64,000 bases of DNA, taken from assembly GCA_964648715.1 (NCBI GenBank), contig CAZYNM010000007.1, forward strand, positions 1,436 to 65,435. Direction: 5' to 3'. The position numbers and the translations under genes were made by a program. Numbering within the stretch: position 1 is the first letter of the stretch; each line of letters starts with the position of its first letter. Source of the stretch: an uncultured Pseudomonadales bacterium. Lineage in GTDB: Bacteria; Patescibacteriota; Microgenomatia; UBA1400; PJMF01. The notes beneath the pieces were generated by a model. The model saw only the letters and a list, made by a program, of their open reading frames with translations, was not told where the DNA came from and ran no database searches. Below are positions 1 to 58,193 of this stretch, in pieces.

Positions 1-1359
1 CTCTGGGGGCATAAAACCACTAAAGCCATTATAGAGTGCTTTGCCATGGTGTAACTGATAGAGCATCCGATTGTCTTCAAGTCCTTCAAACGGTACCATA
101 TCCCACTGTGACAGTGGCAATTCTGCGAGCGTTTTTTCTGGTGCAGCGGCAACAGCTGCATAGATAGGTGGTATTGTGGTAGCAATGGGGATAAGGGGCA
201 CATAGGTGTACCGTAACCATAGCATGGCTGCCAGCCAGATGGTCCCCCCTGCTAGAAGTATGAAACGTGGTACTTGGCGTCTCGAAAGTACCTCTCCCAG
301 TGATAATGTAAGCCCAAAGTTAAGGAGTACACTCCAGCGTGTTACAGCTCGAAATGCTTGGATACCCGGAACAATGTAGTACAGAACAGCATATGGTAAT
401 GGAATGGCAAAACCAAGCGGTTTGAACGTAGTATCGCCAAGTTTAATCACCGGACCCAGCATGCACACTGCACCGGTGCCGGCCATGATTAGCCAAGTAG
501 TTAGGTCAGAATTGTTCTGCTTGCCCTGGACGTGCCACACACGCTCTAGCACTATAGTGAAGATAAGTAAGCCTAGTACGTCTGGCCACAAAAGACGAGT
601 AATGGAAAACGAAAAATGGGCAGTATCACGGATGCTGCGTGCAGCGTGATAGGTGGCAGCTGTCTCTACCCATGGCAGGTAGTACCAAGCACACACTCCC
701 AACGTTACACTCACAATACTGAGAAACATATTGTCGGTGAGGACCGCACGCACTTTCTGTTCTGAAACAACTAATACTAGCGCGGCGGCAGCACACACGT
801 AGCCAGTAAAGGGAGAGTTGAGTGCTTGGGCCACAAAAAAAACTGCCCACAAGAGTGCATAGAATGGGCTTTTTGAATAGAGATACCTCTGGAGAGCCCA
901 GATACTTAGAGGAAGTCCTGCTAGTAAGTACGTGTGTAGATGCACCATAAATTGGAGCTGCAAAAAAGATGTTGCAAACACCAGCGCGATACCAGCAGCC
1001 AGGGAAGATGACTTCCATAGCGAGCGCGCTAACACAAAAAAAGCCAGGAAATTGGTCATACTACCCAAGACAATAAAGGTGTTGTGTTGGGCTATGGGAT
1101 TACTGGTGAACTGCGCAATGATCACTGCTACTGCACCAGCAGTGATAAAAGGATCTGAGTAGGTAACGGTGTATGGATATGGATGAAAAAAAGGCCAATG
1201 GTACCAGCTACCTGTCCCCTGCCAAGCCGTACTGCTTTGCTGTATAAGCCAAATAATGAGTGGGCCATCATTGGGTGAAGTGGTATGTGTGGTCCAGTGT
1301 GTAAAAAGTGTGAAATGAAACAGAATAAGGAGCAGCAGTGCTGCCAGAGCTGCTTTCAT
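1..1359 (-). CDS. Polytopic membrane protein, partial (C-terminus lies beyond window start). Candidate GT-C-type glycosyltransferase-like protein.
   Basis: Manual translation of the minus strand from ATG 1359-1357 (ATGA overlap with the mnmA stop) is open for 453 codons down to position 1. Product is very hydrophobic (MKAALAALLLLILFHF..., many W/F/L/Y-rich helices). Absent from the ORF track because it has no in-window stop. The listed ORFs 626..1018, 404..649 and 932..1162 are out-of-frame overlaps. Confidence 0.6.
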   Translation of the reverse strand, partial: MKAALAALLLLILFHFTLFTHWTTHTTSPNDGPLIIWLIQQSSTAWQGTGSWYHWPFFHPYPYTVTYSDPFITAGAVAVIIAQFTSNPIAQHNTFIVLGSMTNFLAFFVLARSLWKSSSLAAGIALVFATSFLQLQFMVHLHTYLLAGLPLSIWALQRYLYSKSPFYALLWAVFFVAQALNSPFTGYVCAAAALVLVVSEQKVRAVLTDNMFLSIVSVTLGVCAWYYLPWVETAATYHAARSIRDTAHFSFSITRLLWPDVLGLLIFTIVLERVWHVQGKQNNSDLTTWLIMAGTGAVCMLGPVIKLGDTTFKPLGFAIPLPYAVLYYIVPGIQAFRAVTRWSVLLNFGLTLSLGEVLSRRQVPRFILLAGGTIWLAAMLWLRYTYVPLIPIATTIPPIYAAVAAAPEKTLAELPLSQWDMVPFEGLEDNRMLYQLHHGKALYNGFSGFMPPE

Positions 1360-2441
1360 GACATGAGTGCTCCGCCAAGACAGACCGTGCGTCCATCTCG
1401 CTCGGTATAGAACACTGCTGCCTGACCTTCTGCAATACCTTGGATTGGTTCACTAAGTGTCACGGTGCCCTGCCCGTTATCTTGATTTTCTTGCAGTAGT
1501 GTACAGGTTATTCGTTTGCCAAGATGTCTTATGCGCACAGTGAGTTGTTCGCTAGGAAGTGGTGTCTCGATCCAATGGAGTTCACGGATGTTAAAAGTGG
1601 CTGCGTAGGTCTCTGCGCCAAACCCCACAACCAATGTGTTTGTCTCTGGTAGCTTCCGTACGACATAGTAGGGAGGAAAATTATCTTTTTCAAAGCTGCT
1701 GCCATCTTGCAAAGTTACCACAGTTTTCTTGTCTATTGTAAAGCCGTGCCTTTGACCAATGGTGTAGAACCACAACCCACTATGTTGTCCAATTGTACGA
1801 CCTTGCACATCTACAACTGGTCCCGGATTTTCACCTAGTCTCTCCTTGAGAAAGGCGTGCACATTGATATCACCAATAAAACAAATTCCTACAGAATCTT
1901 TTTTGTGCGCCACGGCTAATCCTCGTTCTTCCGCTTGTCGGCGTACTTCTGTTTTTGTATAGCTTGCCAGAGGAAAAACACAGTGTTTAAGTTGTTTTTG
2001 TTGCAAAAGATACAAGAAATATGTCTGATCTTTGTGTGTATCTTTGGGTATGCAGAGTGAAGAATTGTGGATAGCAGCGTAATGTCCAGTTGCTATGGCA
2101 TCATAGCCATGCTCAAGTGCCCAGTCATAAAACAGACCAAACTTGATTTCTTTATTACACAGCACATCGGGATTGGGAGTGCGGCCAGCAGCGTACTCAG
2201 AAAAGAAATACTCCACTACACTGTCTCTATATTTTTGCTTAAAATCTAATACTTGAAACGGAATTCCTAGATCAAGCGCAACCTTGAGTGCATCCGCCCG
2301 GTCTTGTTCGGTTCTACAGCCCGGTGCACGCCAGCACTCTAAGTATACTCCGGTTACCGCGTACCCCGCTTCTGTGAGGAGATGTGCACACAGGGAAGAA
2401 TCTACTCCTCCGCTCATACCAAGTGCAATTTTTTTCTTCAT
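1356..2441 (-). CDS. mnmA: tRNA-specific 2-thiouridylase MnmA
   Basis: N-terminal PP-loop SGGVDSS, and ...GRTPNPDVLCNKEIKF..., typical of MnmA/TrmU. 361 aa. Confidence 0.9.
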   Translation of the reverse strand: MKKKIALGMSGGVDSSLCAHLLTEAGYAVTGVYLECWRAPGCRTEQDRADALKVALDLGIPFQVLDFKQKYRDSVVEYFFSEYAAGRTPNPDVLCNKEIKFGLFYDWALEHGYDAIATGHYAAIHNSSLCIPKDTHKDQTYFLYLLQQKQLKHCVFPLASYTKTEVRRQAEERGLAVAHKKDSVGICFIGDINVHAFLKERLGENPGPVVDVQGRTIGQHSGLWFYTIGQRHGFTIDKKTVVTLQDGSSFEKDNFPPYYVVRKLPETNTLVVGFGAETYAATFNIRELHWIETPLPSEQLTVRIRHLGKRITCTLLQENQDNGQGTVTLSEPIQGIAEGQAAVFYTERDGRTVCLGGALMS

Positions 2442-2478
2442 GAGAAGCGTATTATAACAAGTACATAACTAACTAGTC

Positions 2479-3252
2479 TCAGTAGGTAATTTCTCTAAAG
2501 GGAAGCTCTAAAGTTGTGTACTGCTGTACCTCCGTCCGTGGTAATTGTTCCCCACCAGATACACGATAAATGCCAGGCCCTGTTTGTGAAAGACCATAAA
2601 AGTATACAAAGCCTTCTGGACTAAGCGGCACTGAGTCGTGTTGTTCCGTACCAGCACTAACCTGTGGTTGATAGCCAAAACGAAGTTTATATTCTAAATT
2701 CCCCACGGTATTAATGACGCCAAAAGCATTCCTACTCCGGCCTGCGGAGATCGCTGTACAGGCTTGTTCTTTGGACCATTCTAAAAAGGCATAGTCAAGC
2801 AATGCACCTACCGATGATCTGCCACCTGCAGGCAGCTCGATACGATCATTGGCACGAAATGCAATGCTAGAACGGTGCGTGTGGGGAGCAAAGGTGAATA
2901 CCAGTGTGGCAACGACTTGAGCTTCCTGAGAGATACTAATGAGGTAGACATCTTTTTCTTCTTCACACTTATGCACATACCACTGTGGTGTGGCGAGAAG
3001 CTCGTAACCTTGTTCATTCATCTTTGCAGTGTAGTAAGGTAACCAAGCCTCAAATGCAGCAGCGTCAAGCTTCTTACACTCTTGTGTGAGATGTGCTTGT
3101 GTCATGACATCGCCACGCTTCCTGAGGAATCCGCGCAGCGACTTGCTCTTAACGGCAGAAAGTATGTCTGGAGCATGAATGGGGAAAAACCAACTCACTT
3201 TTTCTGGTCTCTGAACGGCATGCGGGGTGAGGTCAAATAAGTTGTGTTGCAT
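2479..3252 (-). CDS. Hypothetical protein, paralog B of a tandem pair. Possible GNAT-fold FemAB/CelD-like (PF13480-like) aminoacyl/peptidyl transferase.
   Basis: Clearly paralogous to the 3233..4021 product. Both start MQH... and share ...LASPQWY..., GRSxNAFG...LE[FY]K. Start placed at the internal Met (MQHNLFDL) by analogy with the paralog; the ORF upstream of that Met overlaps the neighbouring gene. The C-terminal G-R...FGA block loosely resembles the DfgrG..YK..FGA region of CelD/FemAB-like GNATs. Confidence 0.5.
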   Translation of the reverse strand: MQHNLFDLTPHAVQRPEKVSWFFPIHAPDILSAVKSKSLRGFLRKRGDVMTQAHLTQECKKLDAAAFEAWLPYYTAKMNEQGYELLATPQWYVHKCEEEKDVYLISISQEAQVVATLVFTFAPHTHRSSIAFRANDRIELPAGGRSSVGALLDYAFLEWSKEQACTAISAGRSRNAFGVINTVGNLEYKLRFGYQPQVSAGTEQHDSVPLSPEGFVYFYGLSQTGPGIYRVSGGEQLPRTEVQQYTTLELPFREITY

Positions 3253-4021
3253 AGGGGTGGAGTAACCTTTCGATTCCTGGCGTTCCGTACTGTTTTTCAA
3301 GTTGTTCGGTGGACAGGGTGTCACTTGCCACAAAGAGACGTAATGTAGCTGTAGTGGGGCCGGAAAGTACGTACGCTGCGACACCTGGTTGACCTGCAGT
3401 TGCTGCAGGAATGGTGGTGAGAAGTTCTTCTCCGGGAATATATACTGGTTCATAAAAGTTGGTTTTGAACTCTAAATACCCCAACGTTGTCTGGGCGCCA
3501 AATGCATTATAGGAGCGGCCACCAGAAATAGTGGCTACTTGTTCTTGACAGCATGCACGAATAAAGAAGTAATCGATGAGAGAGCCAAGTGAACTATTTG
3601 ATTGTGAGGAAAGTGACAAAAGCTCACTGGCCTTAAACGCAAGAGTCGCAAGCTCTGTGCCTTTTTGTGAGACAATACCTGTACCCACCAGTAAGTTTTG
3701 TTTGTAGAAAAACAGACCACGGATAATCTTGCCTTCAGCAATTTTTTCATCATACCATTGTGGAGATGCCAATAAGTCATGGTTTCTTGCATTCATTCTT
3801 GTCTTATAAAAAGGCAACCAGTCAAGATAGTTTTGTCGTGTGAGCTGTTCGTACTGCCAGCGAATACCATTGGCAGCAAGGTTTTCTTCTGCCCGTAACA
3901 CAAACTTTCGCAAAGACTTACTACGTATCCCTGCAAAACATTGATCTCTATCACCGTGATAATACCAACGAATCCGCTGTGGTCTAACGAAGCCGAGAGG
4001 TCTGATGTCAATGTGTTGCAT
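3233..4021 (-). CDS. Hypothetical protein, paralog A of a tandem pair. Possible GNAT-fold FemAB/CelD-like transferase.
   Basis: Paralog of 2479..3252 (MQHIDIRPLG..., DLLASPQWY, ISGGRSYNAFGAQTTLGYLEFK). A start at MQH gives a 14-nt overlap with the upstream gene end (4008). Confidence 0.5.
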   Translation of the reverse strand: MQHIDIRPLGFVRPQRIRWYYHGDRDQCFAGIRSKSLRKFVLRAEENLAANGIRWQYEQLTRQNYLDWLPFYKTRMNARNHDLLASPQWYDEKIAEGKIIRGLFFYKQNLLVGTGIVSQKGTELATLAFKASELLSLSSQSNSSLGSLIDYFFIRACCQEQVATISGGRSYNAFGAQTTLGYLEFKTNFYEPVYIPGEELLTTIPAATAGQPGVAAYVLSGPTTATLRLFVASDTLSTEQLEKQYGTPGIERLLHPYATQLI

Positions 4022-5699
4022 CTGCTTCCACTGGATTGAATAAACTACGGTAAGAAACCATGGTAGCGCGTTCAAGTACGGCATGCCAAGGGCTCTGCGG
4101 ATCCGTGACTTTCTCAAACGGAATTTTACCAATCATAAAGTAGTCAAGCAGATCGAGGATAGCATCACGACCAAGTTCTTCTAAATAATCATGGAGTTTT
4201 TCGGTATGCGCAGGATCTTGATCTACCTGTGAGCCCAAAAAAGTCCGAGCTATCGCCTTACCAATTTTAGTGATGTACTGCACGTTGAAATCTCTGGTTG
4301 CTTCAATATGTGGGTGTGTTCTGTCATTATTTTCTAATGGCAGCATGCGCTTGAAGAAGTCAAAAAGTGCCATTTGACCCTCAAAATAAATGGTGTCTTT
4401 GGGGAAGGTTTCTGCAACCAACAGGGTATGTGCTGTGCCAGCTTGGCTGATTGTAACAGGAACTGCTTGGTGATTGAGGGTGGTCCCTCGCTGAATACGC
4501 CACAGAATATCTCCCGCATCTTGTTCGGGAATACCGTACTCTCTCAATTGAGTGTAGATATCTTGTAGCGAGTGTTTGGCTTTCACTGTTCCATCTACAT
4601 CAGCTGCTGTCTTGAGACAGAGTGCAATTGCATAGTAGCGTGCAGCCATCTTTGCTTGTCGCTCATGACCAAACAACTCACCAGCCAAAAGCTCTGCTAG
4701 GACCGCAAGACCTTCGTCGGTTGTCTCGTATCCTTCTGTTCCCTCTTGGAGCAATGTCACTGATTGCCGGGATCCATTCTCGCCACGTATGATATGAACA
4801 AACTCATGCGACACAAATAACTCAATTTCTGTGGGGTCATATGTTTCACTTTCAGGTATACGAATCACTTTTGCTTTGGCATTGACTGTTGTTGCCACTG
4901 AGGCATCAATAATAACGTTCCAACTATCTGCAATACCCAACCTTTTTAAGAAGACGGTATATAAGTGTTTAGTTTCTTGTGGTTGAAGTGGTTCATCAGA
5001 ACTCAGCCGTTCCAATGACAAAGGGGCCAGTTCAGCATCAGTCAAACGAAAATAATTTTGAAATGAATCTGTCTTGTGTATATCTTCTTTTTGAGTTGCT
5101 TGGGACAGCTCAAGTACCGTGCGGGCTGCATCCTCATACTGGAGTGTCACCTCACCACGTTGTTGGGTTTTCTCCAGATCAAGGAGAACAGATAAACGCG
5201 GTGAGCCGGCTGCATTGGTAAATTCTGGAGTTCCTATGACTTGCCCTGTCTCACAAAACTGCAACCAAGCAGTTGCCTTCTCTGCATACGCCTCTTTGAC
5301 TGCTGCGGGGATCTGCGCACCTTCAAGCATGTGTAAAAAGGCGTTGAGCTTGTGGTGATATGCAGCAAGTTGTTGGGGCATATGAAGGGCGATGACCTCT
5401 TGAACACTTGCTGGAGCAGTGGCACTATCTTGGTGAATGGTATATAAAGGGGCTGCGGGTTGAAACTCGGTTATCTTTTGTTGATAGTTTTGTTCGAGCG
5501 TTTTTTTGAACATGGTGCGATAGGCGGCGGGAACCCCCACAGCATCCAAAATCCCAAAATTATTTTTAGGAAGCAATTCCTCCCATTGCTGTACGACTTC
5601 GGCGATACACTCTGCTTCGCCCTGGTCTTTGACAACTTCTTGTTGAAGCGTTGTGCCACCATCAAGAAAAGCTAGTAATTCGGCAGTCTCTTTGTTCAT
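4008..5699 (-). CDS. DUF1704 family protein (flavohemoglobin expression-modulating QEGLA-motif / MATCAP-like predicted zinc metallopeptidase)
   Basis: 563 aa. Contains HExxH (SHEFVHIIRGENG) followed by LLQEGTEGYETTDEGLAVLAELL, resembling the QEGLA signature of TIGR02421/PF08014. ATGA overlap with the upstream ATP-grasp gene. Confidence 0.65.
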   Translation of the reverse strand: MNKETAELLAFLDGGTTLQQEVVKDQGEAECIAEVVQQWEELLPKNNFGILDAVGVPAAYRTMFKKTLEQNYQQKITEFQPAAPLYTIHQDSATAPASVQEVIALHMPQQLAAYHHKLNAFLHMLEGAQIPAAVKEAYAEKATAWLQFCETGQVIGTPEFTNAAGSPRLSVLLDLEKTQQRGEVTLQYEDAARTVLELSQATQKEDIHKTDSFQNYFRLTDAELAPLSLERLSSDEPLQPQETKHLYTVFLKRLGIADSWNVIIDASVATTVNAKAKVIRIPESETYDPTEIELFVSHEFVHIIRGENGSRQSVTLLQEGTEGYETTDEGLAVLAELLAGELFGHERQAKMAARYYAIALCLKTAADVDGTVKAKHSLQDIYTQLREYGIPEQDAGDILWRIQRGTTLNHQAVPVTISQAGTAHTLLVAETFPKDTIYFEGQMALFDFFKRMLPLENNDRTHPHIEATRDFNVQYITKIGKAIARTFLGSQVDQDPAHTEKLHDYLEELGRDAILDLLDYFMIGKIPFEKVTDPQSPWHAVLERATMVSYRSLFNPVEADATH

Positions 5700-6748
5700 A
5701 CAACCTTTGCACTCAATTCTGGGAACATGACAAGGACAAACTCACGGTCAGTGTATCGTTTTTGTCCTTCATATGGAAACTCATGAATACACAATCCAGG
5801 TGAGCTGTTAATCTCAACAATGATGTATGTGTCAGGTGTTTGTGGCTGTGTAATGTCTTGAGACATGAAGTCCACCCCGGCAAAGTGGAGACCTGGAATA
5901 GCACGCACTGCCTGTACTGCAATCTCTTTAACAGAAGGATGCACACGGTCAGTCATATCAATACTGTCTCCCCCTTGCATTACATTGGAGACAGAACGTA
6001 AAAATACTTTTTGACCAGCAACAGGAATGCTTTGAAGTGTTAGGTTTTGGCGAGTAAGGTTGGCCATCATGTCGTCATTTTTTTCAATAATGAAAAGTGC
6101 ATAATCAAGTGTGCGGCCACGACGTGGGTCAGCATTTTTACGATCAACTAATGTCTCAACAGTACTTATGCCGTCCCCCACTACATTGGCTGGTTCTCGA
6201 TGAATGATACCTACTACTTTTTCTCGAGTAGTAAGTACTCGATATTCCTTACCAGAAAATTGTTCTTCAACTAGTGCCCCAGCGTCTTCATCGCTGGTAA
6301 ACGATAGCGCTTTTTTGAGTGCAACCCGATACGCATCTAAGTCTTGAATATTCATACTAATGGCCTGTCCTTGCAAACCATGTGTAGGCTTCACAACCAC
6401 GGGTTTATGTAGTGCTTCAAAGACACGTGTGGTGTAGGCATCAGTATCAGTAGCGTCAACTTTGTATCCGTTCGCTACCTGTATACCGGCGTTTCTGAGC
6501 AATGTATTGGTGGTGTTCTTATCTAGACATGAAGAAAAACCAATGTCTGTCGTATCAGCTGACACTTGGTAGCGGAAATACTTCGTTGTGCCATGATACG
6601 TAAGCTCAAGGATTCGTGTTCCAGGAATGGGTCTCCATTCTACTCCAAGTGCCTCAGCTTGTTCCAAAATGAGTTTAGTGCTGAGAGGAATAGGAATCTC
6701 GCGAAATCCGTCTATTGTGCGGATGGTGTGAACATATGTTGTGCTCAT
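5696..6748 (-). CDS. ATP-grasp ligase, cyanophycin-synthetase (CphA) N-terminal-like, standalone (no Mur-ligase domain)
   Basis: 350 aa. ...VVGDGISTVETLVDRKNADPRRG..., ...MQGGDSIDMTDRVHPS..., ...EINSSPGL... match the CphA ATP-grasp half (GDGxxT...DPRRG, DVTD.HP, EVNAxPGL). ATGA overlaps on both sides. Confidence 0.7.
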   Translation of the reverse strand: MSTTYVHTIRTIDGFREIPIPLSTKLILEQAEALGVEWRPIPGTRILELTYHGTTKYFRYQVSADTTDIGFSSCLDKNTTNTLLRNAGIQVANGYKVDATDTDAYTTRVFEALHKPVVVKPTHGLQGQAISMNIQDLDAYRVALKKALSFTSDEDAGALVEEQFSGKEYRVLTTREKVVGIIHREPANVVGDGISTVETLVDRKNADPRRGRTLDYALFIIEKNDDMMANLTRQNLTLQSIPVAGQKVFLRSVSNVMQGGDSIDMTDRVHPSVKEIAVQAVRAIPGLHFAGVDFMSQDITQPQTPDTYIIVEINSSPGLCIHEFPYEGQKRYTDREFVLVMFPELSAKVV

Positions 6749-7701
6749 AGGTGCTCCTGTACGTACTTGAGTATACTCCCTGCTACATTTCGAGGACTAC
6801 CTTGTAATGGGTAGTGATGCATTCGTAGCCCCGGTGAGGCATTGACTTCAATGACTCCTGCGTTCTTTTGCATTGTAATGGGCGTGGTGAGAGATGTGCA
6901 CATGATATCTATACCAATCACGTTGAGATCACAGACACGTGCAATCTGTTCAAATACTGCTGCATTTTCTGGACAAACAGTATCTGTAACATCCCATGCT
7001 TCACCACCGGTGGATAAATTGGCAGTTTTGCGCAAGTGCACTTCTGTGCCTTGCAGCGGCACCGCATCAAGTGCAGAGCCTTGTTCGTTCAAGTATTCGG
7101 TAACTAGTTCATCCACGGTAATGAGACTTAAATTATTTTGATGACCTTCACCTCTCCAAGGATGTTTATTCTTTTCAGTGATCAGTTGTTGTACGGTGTG
7201 TACTCCATCACCAATCACATGAGCTGGCTTACGAAATGCGGCTGCGACAAACTGGTAACCCACACAAACAATACGATACTCTGTGCCAGACAGCATCTCT
7301 TCAAAAAGAACTATACCTTTTTGTGCACTAAAGTGGCGCTGTGCTTCTTCCATGGTCTTGATACCGACAATTACACCTTTGCCGTGACGTTCATCTACTG
7401 GTTTCATCACTAGTGGAAACGTAAGTGTTTTCAACTGATCTAATTCTGTTTCTGTTTTGACGACACAGCCACGTGCAGTGGGTAGTGAAAAGTGTGTCAA
7501 AATTTTTTTGGTGAGTGGTTTGTAGTCTGCAATTGTTTTTCCCACAGAAGATTGCAGGCTTGTTCGCGAACCTCTGGTATACCACTGCTTCTCATCTTTC
7601 TCCATGAAAATAGTTTCATTGTCATCAAAGAGTGTACATTTTATTCCTTGTTTCAGTGCACTCTCGTGCATGATGCGTGAGCTTGCATTTAATGTGAGCA
7701 T
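6745..7701 (-). CDS. ATP-grasp ligase, cyanophycin-synthetase N-terminal-like, standalone. Tandem paralog of 5696..6748.
   Basis: 318 aa. HVIGDGVHTVQQLITEKNKHPWRG, LRKTANLSTGGEAWDVTDTVCPEN, IEVNASPGLRMHHYPLQGSPRNVAGSIL are near-canonical CphA ATP-grasp motifs. The start may be the internal MHESALKQG (7671). Confidence 0.75.
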   Translation of the reverse strand: MLTLNASSRIMHESALKQGIKCTLFDDNETIFMEKDEKQWYTRGSRTSLQSSVGKTIADYKPLTKKILTHFSLPTARGCVVKTETELDQLKTLTFPLVMKPVDERHGKGVIVGIKTMEEAQRHFSAQKGIVLFEEMLSGTEYRIVCVGYQFVAAAFRKPAHVIGDGVHTVQQLITEKNKHPWRGEGHQNNLSLITVDELVTEYLNEQGSALDAVPLQGTEVHLRKTANLSTGGEAWDVTDTVCPENAAVFEQIARVCDLNVIGIDIMCTSLTTPITMQKNAGVIEVNASPGLRMHHYPLQGSPRNVAGSILKYVQEHL

Positions 7702-8651
7702 ACTTCCTTTACTACATCATCAAAATAATTTTGACTGCCTATTGTAGATATGTGATTGAGATACTGATCAAGTTCAAGAAAAAAGGTAGGAAGTGAAAGT
7801 TGTTCACTGGTAACTGTAGTAGAGAAGTTCCGTAATTCTTCTAGAGAAAGCCGACCCCAATACAGCTGGTGCGGATTACTTTTTTGATGAATGAGCCAGT
7901 CATAGACTTGAATACTTCCTTCCAAGTAGCACATCTCACGGCTAAAGAGTCCTGGCTGACTTGTGTCTGTCAAACCACGCTTTACTTTCACGGCGGTGTT
8001 CCAACTGGTCTGTTTTGATCGACCCAACCGTACTAATGTGTCAAATACTTCCGCAAAGGAAGCTTTTTGAGCTGTATATGCTGCGACATAGGAGAAAAAA
8101 GATTTATAAAATCGCTTATCTTGCCTAAGAAGATGGGTGTGCAAGTTGGCAATGCCCTCTTCTGTTCTACGAATCTCATGTTCTGGGCTTTCATAGGTGG
8201 ACCATGCTTGTGCTGCGTGGTTGCGGTAGCGTAAGACGTGTGTCTCAAGTTCGTGGCGAAGTAGGTCACCAAGCTGCTCTTTTGAGTACACTAACGGCAA
8301 TTGAAAATACAGTGCCGTAGGCGTGACCTTACAACGAGACACGAGATTACTATCAAAGTGAACTTCAAGCGGTGTATGAAGAGGGAACCGCTGATTAAAT
8401 GCGGCAACTTGGCTCACAATATCTTCTTGTGAAACGCGATCTGAGATTGCTGTGCTGCCAGGTGCAGGGAACCGCTGCAACATGTCATAGGCATATTCAT
8501 AGAGTCCTTGATGAGGCACGCCCCATTGGGTTAATAGTTCTGGTGCAGGTATGTCTGCATAGGTGAACTGTGGATTATAGGATACGTCGGCAAAGAATTT
8601 CTCTCTTTCCTCCAAAAGATTCGTCGGTTTAACTGCCATAAGCAAGTTCAT
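7689..8651 (-). CDS. DUF1704/QEGLA-like HExxH protein, second copy (predicted metallopeptidase)
   Basis: 320 aa. HExxH in ...LRHELETHVLRY..., then TEEGIANLHTHLL resembling the QEGLA region. Shorter, divergent relative of 4008..5699. 1-nt overlap with the upstream gene. Confidence 0.5.
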   Translation of the reverse strand: MNLLMAVKPTNLLEEREKFFADVSYNPQFTYADIPAPELLTQWGVPHQGLYEYAYDMLQRFPAPGSTAISDRVSQEDIVSQVAAFNQRFPLHTPLEVHFDSNLVSRCKVTPTALYFQLPLVYSKEQLGDLLRHELETHVLRYRNHAAQAWSTYESPEHEIRRTEEGIANLHTHLLRQDKRFYKSFFSYVAAYTAQKASFAEVFDTLVRLGRSKQTSWNTAVKVKRGLTDTSQPGLFSREMCYLEGSIQVYDWLIHQKSNPHQLYWGRLSLEELRNFSTTVTSEQLSLPTFFLELDQYLNHISTIGSQNYFDDVVKEVCSH

Positions 8652-9940
8652 TATTCGTTCTCCCCCACCAGAAATCCACTCAGATCATTACGTCCTACTT
8701 CAATCTTGTACACAGATTTATCAAGTCGTCTGAGTACCACCATTGCAGTTTTTATTTTACGTTCCTTAAGGCGGAAGCTCACTTCTATCACTGGTGCTTT
8801 GGTTTCATCTTTCTCTGTTTGAAACCATAATAAATCGTCTGTACTTAACAGAGACAAGTCCTCAGCAAGCTGGCGTGAGATCGCACTGCGAAACCGGCCT
8901 GTGTTGAGTAATGCCTCGACCGTGTGTTTTGCCTTGGATTCATTCCCAGCATAGACAGCAATTGACGTGCGTGGTGGCGCAATAAGGAGACCATCTTCAG
9001 CTTTAATTTTATCCGCAAAATTTGCAGCAAATAATGCTTGACCAATTTTCACGCCATGTTCTGCGCTTAACACTTGGAGATCACTCACCCGTTCCAATCG
9101 TCTTCTCAAACCAGCACGATTAGCAAGTTGTATAGAAAGTCCTGGATTGGCATTGAGTTCCACAACAAGAGGTCCACTTGTTTCGCTAATGAATAGGTCA
9201 ACACCACAAAACATCAAACCTGCAGCGCTTGCTGCTTCAACAGCAGTTTGCAACGCTTTGCGCCAAACGGGGATTTTAATGCCATTGAGTTTCTTTTTGC
9301 CATCTGCCATGGTAAGTATAGGTTGACCAGTTCCTGTAATGCCATACGTGGTAATACCGGTCGCAATATCAATCCCTACCCCAATAGCACCCTGGTGCAA
9401 ATTTGCCCTTCCTTCGGACTCGGGGGTGGGTAATCGCAGCATAGCCATAACAGGGACTTGATTAAAAACAATGATACGCACGTCTGGCGTTCCTTTATAG
9501 GCATATTTTTGGAACATGGGATGAATGGGGATGCGTTCTTCAATAATAACATTGTGATTTGATCCGTAGGTACTGTACTGTCCATCAAGAATGTCAAAGC
9601 AATGGAGCTTGACCTCATTGAGTGTCCATACTGTGCCAGTAGAATCATGCCAAGCAAGCTCTTTTTCTACTTTACTGCGGAAGATTGCCACGCCTTTACC
9701 AGCATTGCCATCTGTGGGTTTAATCACAAAGTTACTTTCGAGTGTATCCCAAGGAAATTCATTAACATCTTCAATTGAAGTTAAGATGCCATGAACACGT
9801 GCTGTGCCAATATTGCTATTTTGCAGTAAGATCTTGGTAGCATATTTTGAGCTACAAAAACTTTTCGCTTTGGCTGAGTTGAGCGAACAATACTGCTGCT
9901 GACGAGCATTCATGCCGAGAATATCAGAAGATTTCACCAT
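8651..9940 (-). CDS. RimK-like ATP-grasp (alpha-L-glutamate ligase-related, TIGR02291-like) with ~110-aa C-terminal extension of unknown function
   Basis: 429 aa. ...VIKPTDGNAGKGVAIF..., ...MLRLPTPESEGRANLHQGAIGVGIDI..., ...VELNANPGL... are typical of RimK-related ligases usually found next to DUF1704 and 7TM proteins. The C-terminal ~110 aa has no recognisable motif. Confidence 0.7.
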   Translation of the reverse strand: MVKSSDILGMNARQQQYCSLNSAKAKSFCSSKYATKILLQNSNIGTARVHGILTSIEDVNEFPWDTLESNFVIKPTDGNAGKGVAIFRSKVEKELAWHDSTGTVWTLNEVKLHCFDILDGQYSTYGSNHNVIIEERIPIHPMFQKYAYKGTPDVRIIVFNQVPVMAMLRLPTPESEGRANLHQGAIGVGIDIATGITTYGITGTGQPILTMADGKKKLNGIKIPVWRKALQTAVEAASAAGLMFCGVDLFISETSGPLVVELNANPGLSIQLANRAGLRRRLERVSDLQVLSAEHGVKIGQALFAANFADKIKAEDGLLIAPPRTSIAVYAGNESKAKHTVEALLNTGRFRSAISRQLAEDLSLLSTDDLLWFQTEKDETKAPVIEVSFRLKERKIKTAMVVLRRLDKSVYKIEVGRNDLSGFLVGENE

Positions 9941-9946
9941 AGGTTG

Positions 9947-10870
9947 TTATGACTCGATAATAGTGCGGAAACGCAGATACTCCAATAAGCGGAGCCCTTG
10001 GTACTTACCAGCAAGAATATTGCCCAATGCCACAAAGATAATTGTAAGTTCTGGATTAATGAGAACGGTCTGTTGCAGCCCTTCCCAGCCAATCAATAAA
10101 GAACAAACCACTGCAATAAATAGTGTTTCTAGGGTAAGTTGTACTGCTTGCGATTTGGTACTAGAAAGCTGAGTCTCCATGAAGTTTTCCATGAGTAGAA
10201 TCATGATGAGGAGTGGAAAAATGTTAATTCCAATGATCGCATTGAAACCAGTGACTGTGGCTGCGATGAGCATAATCAAGATGACGAGTGACACACCCGA
10301 AATAAGAAGCGCGGTACGCGGAAGGTACTGCAACTTGAGTCGTTGTGTGAGCGGCCTTAACACGACAGTTGCTAACAAAACAACGGCAAACAGTAGCACC
10401 CCTGTGCTAATGCCTGTTGATACAAAAGCCACAGACAACACAGCAGGTATATAGATACCAAAGCCTTGCAGCCCAATCAAGTGCCTTGAAGCAGAGATGA
10501 TTGCTGTGATAGCAGGAAACAAAATGATAAGAACGACGATATTTGCAGGTAGGCCTTTATCTATGGCTCTACGAATGCCATGCTGAAGAAGATTGTGCCA
10601 GCTAAGTGGCTCAATAGGATGTTCATCAAGGTACGCAGCAAGTTTACTTTTTTGTTTGCCTGTTGTTTCAGTGATATCACGATCGCGTTTTTCTTGGATT
10701 TTTTCTTCAACCAGTGCCGAAGCAGATGCCTGTGCACTGGGAGTAGCTGGCTCAACAAGAACAAGCGGAACCTCCGTTGCCTGTGCTTTAACAGCAGTCT
10801 GTGCGGCAACCTGTGTATGGGTGATGCCAAGAAGGAACACCAAGACGCAGGCAGATGCCAGCAGTTTCAT
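9947..10870 (-). CDS. 7TM membrane protein (7TM module of the ATP-grasp/DUF1704-associated family, without fused transglutaminase domain)
   Basis: Start at MKLLASACVLVFLLG (signal-like). N-terminal low-complexity ectodomain, then about seven hydrophobic helices, ending ...LLEYLRFRTIIES. Sits 6 nt upstream of the RimK-like gene, as in described 7TM/ATP-grasp/QEGLA neighbourhoods. The longer listed ORF start (11047) is probably a spurious upstream extension. Confidence 0.6.
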   Translation of the reverse strand: MKLLASACVLVFLLGITHTQVAAQTAVKAQATEVPLVLVEPATPSAQASASALVEEKIQEKRDRDITETTGKQKSKLAAYLDEHPIEPLSWHNLLQHGIRRAIDKGLPANIVVLIILFPAITAIISASRHLIGLQGFGIYIPAVLSVAFVSTGISTGVLLFAVVLLATVVLRPLTQRLKLQYLPRTALLISGVSLVILIMLIAATVTGFNAIIGINIFPLLIMILLMENFMETQLSSTKSQAVQLTLETLFIAVVCSLLIGWEGLQQTVLINPELTIIFVALGNILAGKYQGLRLLEYLRFRTIIES

Positions 10871-10896
10871 ACGGATATTATACCGCACTCTGAGTT

Positions 10897-11259
10897 TTAA
10901 ATGAAGATTTTGACTAATGGCTGAAAAAAGCCGATCAGTAGAGAGATAATCATGATAGAAAAAAACTGATTGACATGGACTCCAAAAATGAGCATAGCGC
11001 TGATAGAGAATCCGGGAACCAAATAGAGTGCCAAGTACAGTAAGCATGTGTTGAGCACTGTAGAAAAAAGGCCAAGGGTAATGATATTAATAGGTAGAAA
11101 GAAAATTTTGAGTACCGGGCGAATAACGCCATACAGTATTGTTAATACAACACTGGCAATGAGAAGTGTAAGCCAGTTACTAAAGTTAACTGTTGGCAGT
11201 ACCCAAGCCAAGACGAACAACGTAATTGCGGTGCGAATAATAGGTCGTAACATAGCCAA
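10897..11259 (-). CDS. Small 4-TM membrane protein (PF04020 / phage-holin-4-like family)
   Basis: 120 aa, four hydrophobic segments; the pattern resembles the DUF360/Phage_holin_4_2 family. No lysis genes nearby, so a holin role is not implied. Confidence 0.45.
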   Translation of the reverse strand: MAMLRPIIRTAITLFVLAWVLPTVNFSNWLTLLIASVVLTILYGVIRPVLKIFFLPINIITLGLFSTVLNTCLLYLALYLVPGFSISAMLIFGVHVNQFFSIMIISLLIGFFQPLVKIFI

Positions 11260-11271
11260 AGTATACCGTAT

Positions 11272-12594
11272 TTATTCTTGTTCTACCATGGCACGTGTTG
11301 CTCTCCGGTGATGTTGTTTTTTGGAAAAACGATGTGCTTCGTCTCTGAGTTTTTGCACGATCATCAATGCTGGATTTTGTGGAGGCAGTAGCAGCTCTTT
11401 ATACTGCCAGGCATGACTCTTTTCTGAGTGTTGTTTGTGCAACCACAGCTGCAACGGGAAGATCAGCCGATCAGGGTCTTTGGCAATACTTATCACCGGT
11501 GCGTGTCCGTTCCAGGTAAGTAGTGCAGCACGAAGCTGTCCTTTGCCTCCATCAATTACCAGAAGATCAGGGGTACCCCACTCGGGATGGTTCTGGCGAC
11601 GTGTGAGTGCTTCTTTCAGCATGTAATAGTCATTGGGCGTGGTGAGGGAACGTATATTAAACAAGCGATATTCACTGGGTTCTGGCTCTCCATCAATGCT
11701 CACCACTTGTGCCACAGCAGCGTTGGTTCCTTGGGTATTACTGACGTCATAACACTCTATTCGTTTTAGTGGATAGGTTTGTGGAGTCCCACAGTACTCA
11801 TGAAGATAGTGGGTCAGTTGGATGATCCCATTCTCGGTGGTGCTGGTGGCAAGATGGGCCTGAAGTAACAGGTCTGGTTTGAGTTTGTACTGTGGACTAG
11901 TTACTTCTGTAATGAGGCGGGCTTGATCACGAAATACAGCAGCTTTCTCAAATTCTTTTGTGGCTGCTGCCTCTTTCATCTTGTGGGTGAGATCTTTTTT
12001 TACTTCAGATGTTTTGCCGCGCAAAAAAAGCACAAGGTCATGCATGCTGTCTTTGTATTGTTCTGCATCAACAGTGTGGGCACATACTCCAGGGCATAAG
12101 TGAAGGTGATAATAAAAGCAAGGTCGAGTGTTCGCGTTTACGCGTTGAGCATTGCACCAAGGGAAAATAGGGCGAACAATACGTAAGACTTCTTTTACTT
12201 TGTATGCACTTTGAAAGGGTCCAAGTATAGTTCCTTTAGGTTTTTTCTTATCAAGTTCTTGTTTACGCATGGTGAGCACTCGAGGAAAGGCTTCCTCCGT
12301 AATATGAATGTACAGAGGGCTTTTATCATCTTTAAGCAAGATGTTGAAAGGAGGAAGATAGGTGTGAATGAGCTCTGCCTCGGTGAGCAATGCTTCTAAT
12401 TCGCTCTCAAGAACCAGATGCTTCAGTGCGACAGCAGTGTGGACTAATTGTTTTGTTTTGGGTTGCAGGCGAGTAACGTAGGTATACGATGAGACCCGTT
12501 TTTTAAGGTCTTTGGCCTTGCCAACATACAATACGCTACCGTTTTCGTTTAAAAACCAGTAGACCCCAGGCAGAGATGGCAACGATGAGACCAC
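11272..12594 (-). CDS. uvrC: Excinuclease ABC subunit C, short form lacking C-terminal (HhH)2 domain
   Basis: GIY-YIG (PGVYWFLNENGSVLYVGKAKDLKKRVSSY) and Endo-V-like region (LVIDGGKGQL ... KLRDEAHRF); ends right after, so the HhH2 domain is missing. No ATG between the upstream gene's stop and the GIY motif. GTG at 12594 is proposed as start, giving a 59-nt overlap with the upstream gene. Confidence 0.75.
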   Translation of the reverse strand: MVSSLPSLPGVYWFLNENGSVLYVGKAKDLKKRVSSYTYVTRLQPKTKQLVHTAVALKHLVLESELEALLTEAELIHTYLPPFNILLKDDKSPLYIHITEEAFPRVLTMRKQELDKKKPKGTILGPFQSAYKVKEVLRIVRPIFPWCNAQRVNANTRPCFYYHLHLCPGVCAHTVDAEQYKDSMHDLVLFLRGKTSEVKKDLTHKMKEAAATKEFEKAAVFRDQARLITEVTSPQYKLKPDLLLQAHLATSTTENGIIQLTHYLHEYCGTPQTYPLKRIECYDVSNTQGTNAAVAQVVSIDGEPEPSEYRLFNIRSLTTPNDYYMLKEALTRRQNHPEWGTPDLLVIDGGKGQLRAALLTWNGHAPVISIAKDPDRLIFPLQLWLHKQHSEKSHAWQYKELLLPPQNPALMIVQKLRDEAHRFSKKQHHRRATRAMVEQE

Positions 12595-14392
12595 CTGCGA
12601 CCACAGTAAGGACTTGGGTTTGGTCTGAGATTGTGCGGAGAACTTTGGGTCCGGCTGTGAGAGTGGCGGTATGCGTTGTGACATAATTTTCATTGGAAAG
12701 TGCGGCAGATACTGTCACATTTCCTGTTTGTATACTGTACCCGTTGCTTGGAGCACTGTGAACTACAATTTCTTTAGTTTGAAACGGAAGTAGCGTATCA
12801 ATAGTGTAGCGACCGGGATCTATCAGTGCCCCATTGGAACCAACCAGTTGTACATCTACATTATACCAGGCTACTCCAGTCTTGTTAGTTACTGCAAGAG
12901 TGTGCAATCCGGGTATTTTGAGACCCAGGAGCGACTTGGGCATGAACATAATGGCGAGATCAGGTTGGGTATCTGGGAAGGTAGTAGCTAAATCAACAGA
13001 GATATCTTGAGTTGAAACATGATCAGCTTTATAAGAGCCAGCTGGATACGGTGTGGTGCTTGATATGCCGTTTATTGCAAAGGTGATGTGGTTGAGGTCA
13101 AATTGATGAAAGTAGTCAACTCCACCTGTCGTATTTTGCCAAGTTGGATCAACTTGTTTCCAGTGTTGTGTTGCTTCATCAAAATATTCTGGCCAAGCAT
13201 GTAATACATCGGCAGCATAACTAAGCGGTTTAAGTGCTTTATTTTGTGTGTAGGCATATCCGGTGAGGCGTCGAGCAGCCACTCCTTGTGCCCGCGCCAA
13301 TGCCACAAAGAGATCAGTGAACTCTTGGCATACTGCTTGAGTGGGTGCTGCAAGCGCGGCACGAGCTCCTTTGCGAGGGAGTATCTCTCCTTTATCAACA
13401 CTCTCATATGAATAGGTCAAACTCTTCACGACATAGGTGTACAAGCTCTCTACTCCTGCATGTGAAGCAGCAAGCTCTTTGATCTTTGCATCAGTACTTT
13501 CCCAATACTTTTGGTCAGCAAAGTGATCTGGAGTGGGATGCTGGGTGGTCACGATAGTAGAAGGCTCAAGCGTCACTTTTACATTGGCTGTAAGGTACAC
13601 AGGTTGTTGGGTATTGGGAGGAATGTGATAGGTAGCTATCCAGTTGCCGTCCGCATCAACCGAGATGTCATTGGTAGGTGGCTCAAGTGAGAGATACTGT
13701 ACCCGCTGGTATGCGGTATCTGGTGGCAGCGCAACTTGCATAAAACCAGGGTTACTACTGGCATTTTGGAGGTTATATCGCAAGGTGAGCGTGAAGAATT
13801 GTTCAGTCCCAAATACAGCCACAATTGGTTGCTGATTCACATCAGCGAAGCGCGTTGTAATGAAAGCACCATCAAGTTGTGAGACGCCCGTTTGTGGAGA
13901 AATTCGCACTGGGTTTCCAAAAGAAAATGGAGTGCGTAAAATGATGCTGTGTTCTTTATAGTTTTCATCTGTACTAAACGGGGGGATCTGCACTTCTAGA
14001 ACTTTACCTGCTCTTTGTGCAAGCTCAGTGCTCTCATATCGTACGGTGAACGTGTGGCTTTTGCCCTCTCCCACTACATCGTCTGGAAATGTGATGAGAA
14101 TACTAGTGGCTGTACCAGAAGTAGTGATGGTTGGTTCAAGATTTTTGCCATTGTACTCTACCGTTACATTACTCAAATTGGTAGCGTAAAGCGATAAGGA
14201 GTACTGTTTGAGAAAAACGGTGGGGAGCAAATTCTTAATGGTAAATTGATGTGTGATAACAGTGTTGCCAGATTCGGAAACTGTATATGTAGTAGTGAGG
14301 CGGTTCTCAAATGACTGCTCCGCTTTGACTGGCGAGACACCCCACGCCATGAGTGTTACACATATAAAAAAAACTACTAGTGCACCACGCAT
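12536..14392 (-). CDS. Secreted transglutaminase-like (papain-fold Cys-His-Asp) protein with C-terminal TM anchor
   Basis: 618 aa. Signal peptide (MRGALVVFFICVTLMAWGVSPVKA). Transglutaminase core AVCQEFTDLF ... LHAWPEYF ... WKQVDPTW (Cys/His/Asp intact). C-terminal hydrophobic anchor plus KRKR. Confidence 0.75.
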   Translation of the reverse strand: MRGALVVFFICVTLMAWGVSPVKAEQSFENRLTTTYTVSESGNTVITHQFTIKNLLPTVFLKQYSLSLYATNLSNVTVEYNGKNLEPTITTSGTATSILITFPDDVVGEGKSHTFTVRYESTELAQRAGKVLEVQIPPFSTDENYKEHSIILRTPFSFGNPVRISPQTGVSQLDGAFITTRFADVNQQPIVAVFGTEQFFTLTLRYNLQNASSNPGFMQVALPPDTAYQRVQYLSLEPPTNDISVDADGNWIATYHIPPNTQQPVYLTANVKVTLEPSTIVTTQHPTPDHFADQKYWESTDAKIKELAASHAGVESLYTYVVKSLTYSYESVDKGEILPRKGARAALAAPTQAVCQEFTDLFVALARAQGVAARRLTGYAYTQNKALKPLSYAADVLHAWPEYFDEATQHWKQVDPTWQNTTGGVDYFHQFDLNHITFAINGISSTTPYPAGSYKADHVSTQDISVDLATTFPDTQPDLAIMFMPKSLLGLKIPGLHTLAVTNKTGVAWYNVDVQLVGSNGALIDPGRYTIDTLLPFQTKEIVVHSAPSNGYSIQTGNVTVSAALSNENYVTTHTATLTAGPKVLRTISDQTQVLTVVAGGLIVAISAWGLLVFKRKR

Positions 14393-14425
14393 ATGGCCTC
14401 ATTGTAGAAGAAAAAGATCTCTTTG

Positions 14426-33004: not shown

Positions 33005-33091
33005 GCCGAGGTGCTGAAATTGGTAGACAGGCTGGACTTAGAATCCAGTGCCCCTCAACAAGGCGTGCAGGTTCGATTCCTGTCCTCGGCA
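33005..33091 (+). tRNA. tRNA-Leu(TAG)
   Basis: Acceptor GCCGAGG/CCTCGGC, anticodon stem CTGGA/TCCAG with loop CTTAGAA, long variable arm, T-loop TTCGATT, discriminator A. 87 nt, no CCA encoded. Confidence 0.85.
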
Positions 33092-55670: not shown

Positions 55671-55717
55671 CGAGAAAGAATATAGAATCTCCAGAGGAAA
55701 TCAAAATATGTGAGCCA
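55671..55717 (+). repeat. 47-bp direct repeat copy B (spans 3' flank and last 7 nt of tRNA-Lys)
   Basis: CGAGAAAGAATATAGAATCTCCAGAGGAAATCAAAATATGTGAGCCA; see copy A. Confidence 0.65.
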
Positions 55718-55784
55718 GCTGGGACTCGAACCCAGGACACTTTGCTTAAGAGGCAAATGCTCTAACCAACTGAGCTACTGGCCC
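55711..55784 (-). tRNA. tRNA-Lys(CTT)
   Basis: Minus strand: GGGCCAG-TA-GCTC-AGTTGGTTA-GAGC-A-TTTGC-CTCTTAA-GCAAA-GTGTC-CTGGG-TTCGAGT-CCCAG-CTGGCTC-A. 74 nt, no CCA. Confidence 0.85.
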
Positions 55785-55878
55785 TCACACGAACTAGTAT
55801 TATACCTCAAGATTACATTGAGAGCGAACACTTATTTCACTTTCTTGCAGTCTAGTCAAGATTGAGTAATACTGAAGT

Positions 55879-57063: not shown

Positions 57064-57073
57064 GGTGACTCGG

Positions 57074-57147
57074 TGCACCCAGAGGGAATTGAACCCCCAA
57101 CCTTCTGTTCCGAAGACAGACGCTCTATCCAATTGAGCTATGGGTGC
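57074..57147 (-). tRNA. tRNA-Arg(TCG)
   Basis: Minus strand: GCACCCA-TA-GCTC-AATTGGATA-GAGC-G-TCTGT-CTTCGGA-ACAGA-AGGTT-GGGGG-TTCAATT-CCCTC-TGGGTGC-A. 74 nt. Confidence 0.8.
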
Positions 57148-57214
57148 GCACCGCTATTATACCTCAAAAAGTCCTCTTTTATTCCCTTCATCCAGTGCTA
57201 CAATACTTGAGAAG

Positions 57215-57901: not shown

Positions 57902-57920
57902 TCTTTCCGTATAATTTTCA

Positions 57921-57939
57921 TTTTTTTTGCGGTACAATA
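57921..57939 (+). promoter_or_regulatory. Candidate tRNA promoter: T-tract + GCGG + TACAAT (-10-like)
   Basis: TTTTTTTTGCGGTACAATA, 12 nt upstream of tRNA-Leu(CAG). Near-identical to the motif at 58057. Confidence 0.45.
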
Positions 57940-57950
57940 CCCCCTGTGTT

Positions 57951-58037
57951 GCCGAAGTGGCGAAACTGGTAGACGCGCACGCTTCAGGAGCGTGTGGGTT
58001 CACCCCCATGGAGGTTCGAGTCCTCTCTTCGGCACCA
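57951..58037 (+). tRNA. tRNA-Leu(CAG)
   Basis: GCCGAAG...CACGC-TTCAGGA-GCGTG, long variable arm, GGAGG-TTCGAGT-CCTCT, CTTCGGC-A-CCA (CCA encoded). 87 nt. Confidence 0.85.
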
Positions 58038-58056
58038 GAGATCTTTGAAACAACTC

Positions 58057-58075
58057 TTTTTTTTGCGGTATAATA
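58057..58075 (+). promoter_or_regulatory. Candidate tRNA promoter: T-tract + GCGG + TATAAT
   Basis: TTTTTTTTGCGGTATAATA, 14 nt upstream of tRNA-Leu(GAG). Confidence 0.5.
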
Positions 58076-58088
58076 AGCATGAAAATAT

Positions 58089-58169: not shown

Positions 58170-58193
58170 CTTAAATACTCTGTATGGCTATGC

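Follow-up and report, generated by a model that had tools for sequence, protein, structure and literature searches.

In the cyanophycin synthetase CphA1, a G-type ATP-grasp module forms an α-peptide bond at a C-terminal carboxylate and the M (Mur-ligase) domain forms the isopeptide bond (PMC9427784). For the CphA G domain, as for GshF, the C-terminal α-carboxylate is phosphorylated and then attacked by the α-amine of the incoming amino acid. The NAGGN synthetase Ngg follows the same chemistry of carboxylate phosphorylation and amine attack. In CphA2, the G domain alone can polymerise. A second point of reference is the Rlo system of Pseudomonas, where mutants that lack the Rlo protease die under hypo-osmotic conditions unless rloB or rloC is deleted as well; RloB has been reported to be 96% proteobacterial (PMC12239564). 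Here we describe a locus in a 64,000-nucleotide stretch of contig CAZYNM010000007.1 (assembly GCA_964648715.1; hereafter the window), in which two stand-alone ligases of the CphA G-domain type, G2 and G1, are encoded in a cluster that joins homologues of the biochemically unexplained Pseudomonas RloB and RloC, homologues of human MATCAP, and predicted Fem-like transferases.

Two single-domain ATP-grasp ligases

6745..7701, minus strand: G2, stand-alone ATP-grasp ligase of the CphA G-domain type, 318 residues (profile, PDB and residue mapping)
5696..6748, minus strand: G1, paralogous stand-alone ATP-grasp ligase, 350 residues (profile, PDB, residues and AlphaFold2 model)

G1 and G2 are members of the ATP-grasp carboxylate-amine ligase superfamily. 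Their open reading frames overlap by 4 nucleotides, and the pair fills 5696-7701 exactly. The cyanophycin synthetase profile TIGR02068 (NCBIfam, 862 positions) aligned with G2 over model positions 159-470 (313.7 bits, E 2.3e-93) and with G1 over positions 160-475 (259.4 bits, E 6e-77), far under the full-length cut-off of 850 bits for both proteins, and the matched part is the G (ATP-grasp) domain only. Pfam returned ATP-grasp families alone, with RimK and Dala_Dala_lig_C matches above cut-off. There was no Pfam match in G1 or G2 to the Cyanophycin_syn N domain (PF18921; CphA1 residues 1 to ~160), for which there is also no room, as the TIGR02068 alignment begins at residue 6 of G2 and residue 22-23 of G1. 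The Mur_ligase (M) domain likewise had no Pfam match in either protein, and both open reading frames end directly past the ATP-grasp. An earlier reading of the window from its sequence alone (the sequence-only reading) had placed two CphA-like ATP-grasp proteins within these coordinates and had described them as lacking the Mur-ligase half. Both statements stand: the first agrees with TIGR02068, the PDB search and Pfam, and the second with the Pfam result and with the equally short homologues.

Among solved structures, CphA1 ranked first (7wac; E 1.1e-56 with G2, 3.1e-46 with G1), ahead of CphA2 (E 9e-44 with G2) and the ATP-grasp module of GshAB, while D-Ala-D-Ala ligases appeared only at E ~1e-4. 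Among NCBIfam families, GshF and the NAGGN synthetase Ngg were second and third best, both below their own cut-offs. The GshF model (NF002688; cut-off 425) gave 215.8 bits for G2 and 206.8 bits for G1, over model positions 431-755 only; this is its C-terminal part, and the glutamate-cysteine ligase domain of the GshF type is absent from both proteins. The RimK model (TIGR00768) scored 49 bits (G2) and 37 bits (G1) against a cut-off of 143, and Ddl models reached at most 54 bits against 243. An AlphaFold2 model of G1, calculated from an alignment of 32 family members, had a mean predicted local distance difference test (pLDDT) score of 94.9. It superposed on the TeCphA1 G domain with a template modelling (TM) score of 0.82-0.83 (root-mean-square deviation 2.6 Å) and on GshF (3ln6) with a TM-score of 0.83, compared to ~0.5 for Ddl, RimK and LysX. 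By the defining features tested, G1 and G2 are neither cyanophycin synthetases nor GshF, RimK or Ddl enzymes.

Each protein has more than 200 orthologues, and the best 120 listed for each are mostly ~310-360 residues long, with few fragments or longer proteins. That G1 or G2 might be a pseudogene or a product of assembly truncation is ruled out by the hundreds of orthologues of the same length, the invariant catalytic residues and the overlapping downstream genes.

Active sites of G2 and G1

The roles of individual residues were mapped from TeCphA1, whose numbering is used throughout, onto alignments of the G1 and G2 families. In TeCphA1, K220 and K261 bind the ATP phosphates, H267 and R309 bind the primer C-terminal carboxylate and the acyl-phosphate, and E215 contacts the primer Arg side chain; R323 and N394 hold the β-carboxyl of the incoming Asp, S396 belongs to the Asp pocket, R458 contacts its α-carboxyl, E450 binds Mg and G456 forms the oxyanion site (PMC9427784).

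G2 of the window retains K220, K261, H267, R309, R323, N394, S396, E450, N452, G456 and R458, and in its family the mapped residues other than 215 are retained in 27-30 of 30 sampled members. Position 215 is Thr in the window G2, Thr or Ser in all 30 of its relatives and Ser in G1; in CphA1-length proteins it is Asp or Glu (41 of 52). Both families are invariant at K220, K261, R309, E450 and N452. The G1 family also retains R323 and N394, and most of its members have His or Gln at 267. The window G1 has an intact catalytic core with Q267, M396 and C458; among its relatives position 458 is occupied by Cys, Ser, Asp, His, Ala or Gly, and never by Arg. Judged from these conserved residues, both proteins have complete ATP-grasp active sites, including those that bind the carboxylate and stabilise the acyl-phosphate.

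The sequence-only reading had credited both proteins with near-canonical CphA motifs. This is correct for G2, which has a canonical NLSTGG motif (TANLSTGGEAWDVTD) and EVNAxPGLRMH motif (EVNASPGLRMHH), but not for G1, which reads VSNVMQGGDSIDMTD and EINSSPGLCIHEF at these places. What G1 resembles here is GshF. Rebuilt from PDB alignments, the GshF site has K220, K261, R309, R323, N394, S396, E450 and N452, with Met or Tyr at 458, Tyr or Phe at 267 and the loop NSNISTGGDSIDMTD; G1 and GshF have in common the GGDSIDMTD motif and a HEFPYEG-like (HxFPYxG) motif. The predicted nucleophile site of G1 is thus similar to that of the GshF ATP-grasp module. For G2 the nucleophile is most likely Asp, as indicated only by R458 and by how closely the TANLSTGG and PGLRMH motifs match overall. 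The earlier suggestion that the two ligases differ in specificity fits these differences between their substrate sites.

G1 and G2 share 30% identity. In neighbour-joining trees with 200 bootstraps, the G2 clade was supported at 83%, the G1 core clade at 90% and a GshF clade, apart from G1, at 94%, and a split between G1, GshF and multi-domain proteins on one side and G2 and CphA on the other at 61%. A recent tandem duplication is ruled out by the low identity and the separate orthologous families, and the simple duplication put forward in the sequence-only reading did not hold up, as the two families lie on opposite sides of this split. That reading had also named D-Ala-D-Ala ligases and glutathione synthetases as the competing placement. 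G2 sits on the CphA side. G1 leans to the module of GshF, an ATP-grasp that is CphA-like in its own right, and scores with the Ddl and RimK models are much lower. When the ATP-grasp domain of the window RloC-like protein was used to root the tree, no root was supported (bootstraps ≤20%), and we therefore claim no direction of change, whether loss of the N and M domains in the G2 family or their gain in CphA.

The operon and its conservation

9947..10870, minus strand: RloB-like seven-transmembrane (7TM) protein (PF14402; Pfam, NCBIfam); the mechanical open reading frame reaches 11047
8651..9940, minus strand: RloC-like ATP-grasp ligase (ATPgrasp_ST/TIGR02291), RimK-related, 429 residues; the ATP-grasp is residues 1 to ~293
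8651..9070, minus strand: retropepsin-like C-terminal domain of the RloC-like protein, about its last 130 residues, with NTGR where relatives have DTGA
7689..8651, minus strand: MCa, MATCAP/DUF1704 metallocarboxypeptidase-like protein, 320 residues, motifs HELETH and TEEGIANL
4008..5699, minus strand: MCb, second and divergent MATCAP-family protein, 563 residues, motifs HEFVH and TDEGLAVL
3233..4021, minus strand: U1, without Pfam family, 262 residues from MQH..., paralogue of U2; Fem/DUF2156-like tandem-GNAT fold predicted from the U2 model
2479..3252, minus strand: U2, without Pfam family, 257 residues; aminoacyl-tRNA-dependent transferase-like fold in an AlphaFold2 model
10897..11259, minus strand: small membrane protein with four transmembrane segments (4-TM; PF04020), directly upstream of the 7TM gene in all related loci

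The ligase genes lie in a compact minus-strand operon with the order 7TM, RloC-like, MCa, G2, G1, MCb, U1, U2. Consecutive genes from the RloC-like gene through U2 overlap by 1-20 nucleotides, and 6 nucleotides separate the 7TM gene from the RloC-like gene. A scan of 1000-14500 for promoters and terminators gave counts no different from shuffled expectation. On inspection of the sequences, no signal-peptide-like N-terminus was seen in the cytoplasmic enzymes of the cluster. Whether the 4-TM protein is part of the system is uncertain.

The 7TM protein has a signal-peptide-like start at MKLLASACVLVFLLG and matched PF14402 with 84.7 bits (cut-off 25). The RloB model NF052267 (cut-off 900) gave 72.6 bits over RloB positions 315-506 only, which covers the 7TM part; the inactive transglutaminase domain of RloB is absent from the window protein. 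Its C-terminal tail reads ...LEYLRFRTIIES. The adjoining RloC-like gene encodes an ATP-grasp domain that matched PF14397 (ATPgrasp_ST) with 190.4 bits (cut-off 31.4). The C-terminal domain of this protein is retropepsin-like: Gag-asp_proteas matches were found in 14 of 18 aligned relatives, and two Paceibacterota relatives with DTGA match PF05618 (E 1.6e-13). In the lineage of the window, where the motif reads NTGR, the domain is probably inactive.

The whole length of MCa can be aligned with the human MATCAP catalytic domain (7z5g; E 1.9e-28). MCb has ~230 N-terminal residues without a detectable family and is 18% identical to MCa; PF08014 (cut-off 27) gave 74.8 and 77.4 bits for the pair. 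The peptidases that the sequence-only reading had noted beside the ligases are thus two MATCAP/DUF1704 metallopeptidases, with HExxH and EG(I/L)A motifs intact. The surroundings are far richer than that reading had it: the operon is Rlo-like and also encodes a third ATP-grasp ligase, a 7TM protein and a pair of proteins of predicted Fem/DUF2156 fold.

These last two, U1 and U2, are 30% identical to each other and belong to a family with only 23 relatives among 5.8 billion proteins, all ~255 residues long. Pfam gave no usable match for U1, U2 and 14 family members (the best was Acetyltransf_6, E 0.05, in one member). The AlphaFold2 model of U2, from a 23-sequence alignment, had a pLDDT of 93.9, and the top 25 Foldseek matches were the Sbb17/Sba18 peptide synthases (top E 2.7e-7), the C-terminal DUF2156 domain of MprF/aaPGS, and FemX, at TM-scores of ~0.5; L/F-transferase and ATE1 followed at ranks 36-48.

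To establish how far the cluster extends, species-representative genomes were scanned and loci were mapped by phmmer with the window proteins. The order 7TM, RloC-like, G-type ligase was found in 20 of these genomes, most of them named or inferred Patescibacteria, and 17 of the 20 have the MATCAP-like MCa. Close homologues carry source names such as Candidatus Woesebacteria and Patescibacteria group, and independent metagenome contigs show the same gene arrangement. Titles such as 'uncultured Pseudomonadales', 'Vitreimonas' or 'Limisphaerales' on many related metagenome-assembled genomes disagree with these names and with the common gene order, and were given no weight. The core of the cluster is 7TM, RloC-like, MATCAP and G2. 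Around it, G1-type paralogues number 0 to 3 per locus, with varying residues at 396, 397 and 458, and U genes number 0 to 2. MCb was seen only in this window among the sampled loci and is missing from the two closest (L005 and L019); its presence between G1 and U1 looks like an insertion specific to this lineage.

Most of the 20 loci occupy the same site, which runs uvrA, transglutaminase-core protein, uvrC, the small 4-TM protein, the cluster, mnmA. The transglutaminase-core gene lies between uvrA and uvrC here and in almost all related loci that bear the cluster. In the window it is at 12536-14392 on the minus strand and encodes a membrane-anchored protein of 618 residues with an apparently intact Cys-His-Asp triad (VCQEF, HAWPE, DPTW). 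A separate transglutaminase-core protein and an RloB-like 7TM protein without that domain may together form one system in split form.

Variant loci bear on individual partners. Two Paceibacterota loci (L061:6061-6480 and L071:4792-5211) have an intact retropepsin DTGA and no MATCAP gene, and in the lineage with MATCAP the motif is degenerate (NTGR), which suggests that one peptidase took the place of the other. At L074:6663-13013 (the same as L024), a 7TM gene, an ATPgrasp_ST gene and a MATCAP gene (377 residues) are followed by an 843-residue ligase in the position of G2 and then by a GNAT acetyltransferase. This ligase combines ATP-grasp, Mur_ligase_M and Mur_ligase_C with an intact P-loop (GTNGKT), a Thr at 215 and a short N-terminal region; the cluster is therefore tied in evolution to two-domain CphA-like enzymes. 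In a locus titled deltaproteobacterial (L004), a stand-alone G2-like gene is found close to RimK and a 656-residue MATCAP protein. Genome matches farther away (35-40% identity) are full-length CphA1 proteins, most of ~880-980 residues and titled Acidobacteriota or Bacillota, and there the cluster is absent.

An exhaustive search of the representatives returned many proteins in which two or three CphA-G-like ATP-grasp domains are fused. These uncharacterised proteins (P0247, P0251, P0253, P0259, P0296 and others) often end in an acylphosphatase domain, and one comes from Magnetococcales. Mur-ligase, PGA_cap or DUF2156 (LPG_synthase_C) domains are present in some; P0247 is one with DUF2156, and U2 did not match it by BLASTP. 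The tandem use of CphA-G-like modules is thus a recurrent design. The proteins look like ATP-grasp 'assembly lines', and multi-step assembly is supported by these fusions.

The rest of the window is ordinary chromosome, with uvrB, iPGM, enolase and a PPDK-like gene. Eight of its nine tRNA genes cluster at 55711-61255, on both strands, and the ninth is at 33005-33091. The segment at 42-44 kb has a GC content of 0.53, compared to ~0.44, and encodes a protein that resembles thiamine pyrophosphate enzymes.

Proposed function and comparison with known systems

With moderate confidence, we propose that G1 and G2 are functional single-domain carboxylate-amine ligases of the CphA-G/GshF/Ngg branch, acting in the following pathway. 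From their sequences we infer ATP-dependent ligase chemistry: each would use ATP to phosphorylate the C-terminal α-carboxylate of a peptide or of an N-blocked amino acid, and the acyl-phosphate would be attacked by the α-amine of the incoming amino acid to give one ordinary peptide bond. As for the substrates, the order of the steps and the product, we infer that G2 would add Asp or an Asp derivative to an acceptor without the Arg side chain of cyanophycin, and that G1, with its GshF-like site, would add a different, possibly small, amino acid. The RloC/RimK-like ligase would probably add Glu, by analogy with RimK, and U1 and U2 would probably extend an amino group using aminoacyl-tRNA. The MATCAP-type carboxypeptidases would trim or recycle C-terminal residues, and the RloB-like 7TM protein would export or anchor the product, or be its target. 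All partners would work in one cytoplasmic pathway, whose role, by analogy with Pseudomonas RloABC, is probably in the cell envelope. What the operon most likely makes and trims is a small peptide or peptide tail, and the suppression of lethality by rloB or rloC deletion in Pseudomonas fits a ligase product that needs processing. Isopeptide formation by G1 or G2, part of what the sequence-only reading had envisaged, is unlikely because the M domain that performs this task in CphA1 (PMC9427784) is missing here.

Several observations weigh against this proposal. No result here names a substrate or a product, the 7TM protein is tied to the ligases by gene order only, and the assignment of the U family is that of a predicted fold at a TM-score of ~0.5. 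The CphA1 Asp contacts R323, N394 and S396 are retained also in GshF, which adds glycine. Deep branching in the trees is weakly supported (61% for the G1/G2 split) and rooting was unsuccessful. Finally, the G domain of CphA2 polymerises on its own, and iterative polymerisation thus competes with single addition as a reading of G1 and G2.

The first alternative is an iterative polymerase. G2, either by itself or together with G1 and the RloC-like ligase, would then be a stripped-down cyanophycin-like synthetase making a poly-amino acid, for example poly-α-aspartate or a mixed Asp/Glu chain. CphA1 and CphA2 are nearest to G2, a CphA-like enzyme with G and M domains stands at the same operon position in the variant locus L074, and relatives of RimK make poly-Glu. 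Nevertheless, we consider such an activity unlikely. Known cyanophycin synthetases, CphA2 included, all retain an N domain for tethering or stability, which G1 and G2 do not have; the acidic residue that binds the primer Arg is missing, and the cluster showed no cyanophycinase-like gene. The sequence-only reading had also expected poly-amino-acid synthesis, which no result here shows, and GshF and Ngg, the closest relatives outside CphA, are single-addition enzymes. GshF and Ngg, as second and third family matches, might instead point to a small soluble product such as a glutathione-like thiol peptide or an N-acyl dipeptide osmolyte of the NAGGN kind. The GshF-like nucleophile site of G1, the GNAT acetyltransferase after the ligase in L074 and the osmotic-stress phenotypes of the Pseudomonas Rlo system (PMC12239564) would suit this. 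It is nonetheless very unlikely: Pfam and NCBIfam found neither a γ-glutamylcysteine ligase domain nor an AsnO-type amidotransferase in the cluster, G1 and G2 score under the GshF and Ngg cut-offs, and peptidases and a 7TM protein are foreign to both pathways.

The cluster might also act as a writer and eraser of C-terminal tails, in which three ligases (the RimK-like one adding Glu, the CphA-like one probably Asp and the GshF-like one a third residue) add what MATCAP carboxypeptidases remove. This version is improbable; its most obvious target would be the tail of the RloB-like 7TM protein, in which the last residue is often Glu. The same idea applied to a protein C-terminus in general, as for RimK/RimB on S6 or TTL/MATCAP, with the 7TM tail as candidate target, has in our view little likelihood. 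In its favour, 17 of 20 loci have a MATCAP gene right next to the ligase genes, the homology of MCa to human MATCAP spans its full length, and the RloC-like ligase is RimK-related and bears a RimB-like retropepsin domain. The 7TM protein ends in ...IIE, ...IIES, ...IISE or ...IIEE in ~11 of 20 loci, and most RloC-like proteins have ...GENE or ...GEXE as their last residues; such acidic ends would suit RimK-type tailing. However, no characterised CphA-G, GshF or Ngg member acts on a folded protein, conservation of the 7TM tail is only partial, no result here shows a protein target, and Fem-like proteins are ill-suited to pure C-terminal tailing. A last alternative is the decoration of a peptidoglycan precursor, where Fem-type tRNA-dependent and ATP-grasp additions would modify the stem peptide or cross-bridge. 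ATP-grasp D-Asp ligases for cross-bridges occur in enterococci, the predicted fold of U1 and U2 is FemX-like, and Pseudomonas Rlo mutants have cell-shape, ampicillin and hypo-osmotic phenotypes (PMC12239564). To this we assign hardly any probability: no result here relates G1 or G2 to the enterococcal D-Asp ligase family, many loci keep G2 without U genes, and no mur or fem neighbours were seen.

Bacteria of the candidate phyla radiation (CPR) have very small genomes and nevertheless retain, at a fixed chromosomal position, this cluster of 5-9 genes with its ATP-consuming peptide ligases. Such retention points to an important role, probably one in the cell envelope. G1 and G2 represent a minimal, G-domain-only form of the CphA/GshF ligase module that could serve enzymology and peptide-ligase engineering, and the cluster offers a tractable route to the product of Rlo-type systems and to the role of bacterial MATCAP homologues. 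If tail writing and erasing were true, the tubulin tyrosination and glutamylation cycle would have a counterpart in prokaryotes, from which it may even have evolved, and the Rlo system would gain a biochemical function. The enzymology is predictable in outline; the cluster merits experiments because it pairs ligases with MATCAP, connects to Rlo and is strictly kept in minimal CPR genomes. In the literature searched, no publication described the cluster; an earlier in-silico mention may exist.

Compared with known systems, both ligases are closest in sequence and fold to the CphA1 G domain (TeCphA1 7wac/7wae, SuCphA1 7lg5), with the same core, lid and omega architecture. G2 keeps all catalytic residues and those in contact with the incoming Asp, whereas G1 keeps them only in part (Q267, M396, C458). 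CphA1 has N and M domains, both absent from G1 and G2, which hence perform no side-chain ligation of Arg; it also has an acidic residue at 215, where G1 and G2 have Thr or Ser, and a wholly different gene context. CphA2 (7ta5, 8fxh) is the precedent for catalysis by G alone, but it keeps an N domain, a truncated M domain and the Arg-binding D212, none of which G1 or G2 has. The C-terminal ATP-grasp module of GshF/GshAB (3ln6, 3ln7) resembles G1 in lacking Arg458 and in having GGDSIDMTD and HxFPYxG, but GshF has an N-terminal γ-glutamylcysteine ligase domain that G1 and G2 do not, and the G1 clade is separate.

RimK/RimB and the TTL/MATCAP tubulin cycle likewise pair an ATP-grasp ligase that adds to a C-terminus with a peptidase that removes, although G1 and G2 fall outside the RimK and TTL families (37-49 bits against 143 for the RimK model). 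The Pseudomonas RloABC system (PMC12239564) is alike in placing a 7TM_transglut protein beside an ATPgrasp_ST (TIGR02291-type) ligase and a retropepsin-type domain. There, however, the protease RloA is secreted and RloB has an inactive transglutaminase domain, whereas in the window the retropepsin is fused to the cytoplasmic ligase, with a degenerate NTGR, and the 7TM protein is without that domain. Over and above the RloABC set, the window operon has further ligases of two mechanistic classes, CphA-type enzymes among them, together with MATCAP-family peptidases and Fem-like proteins.

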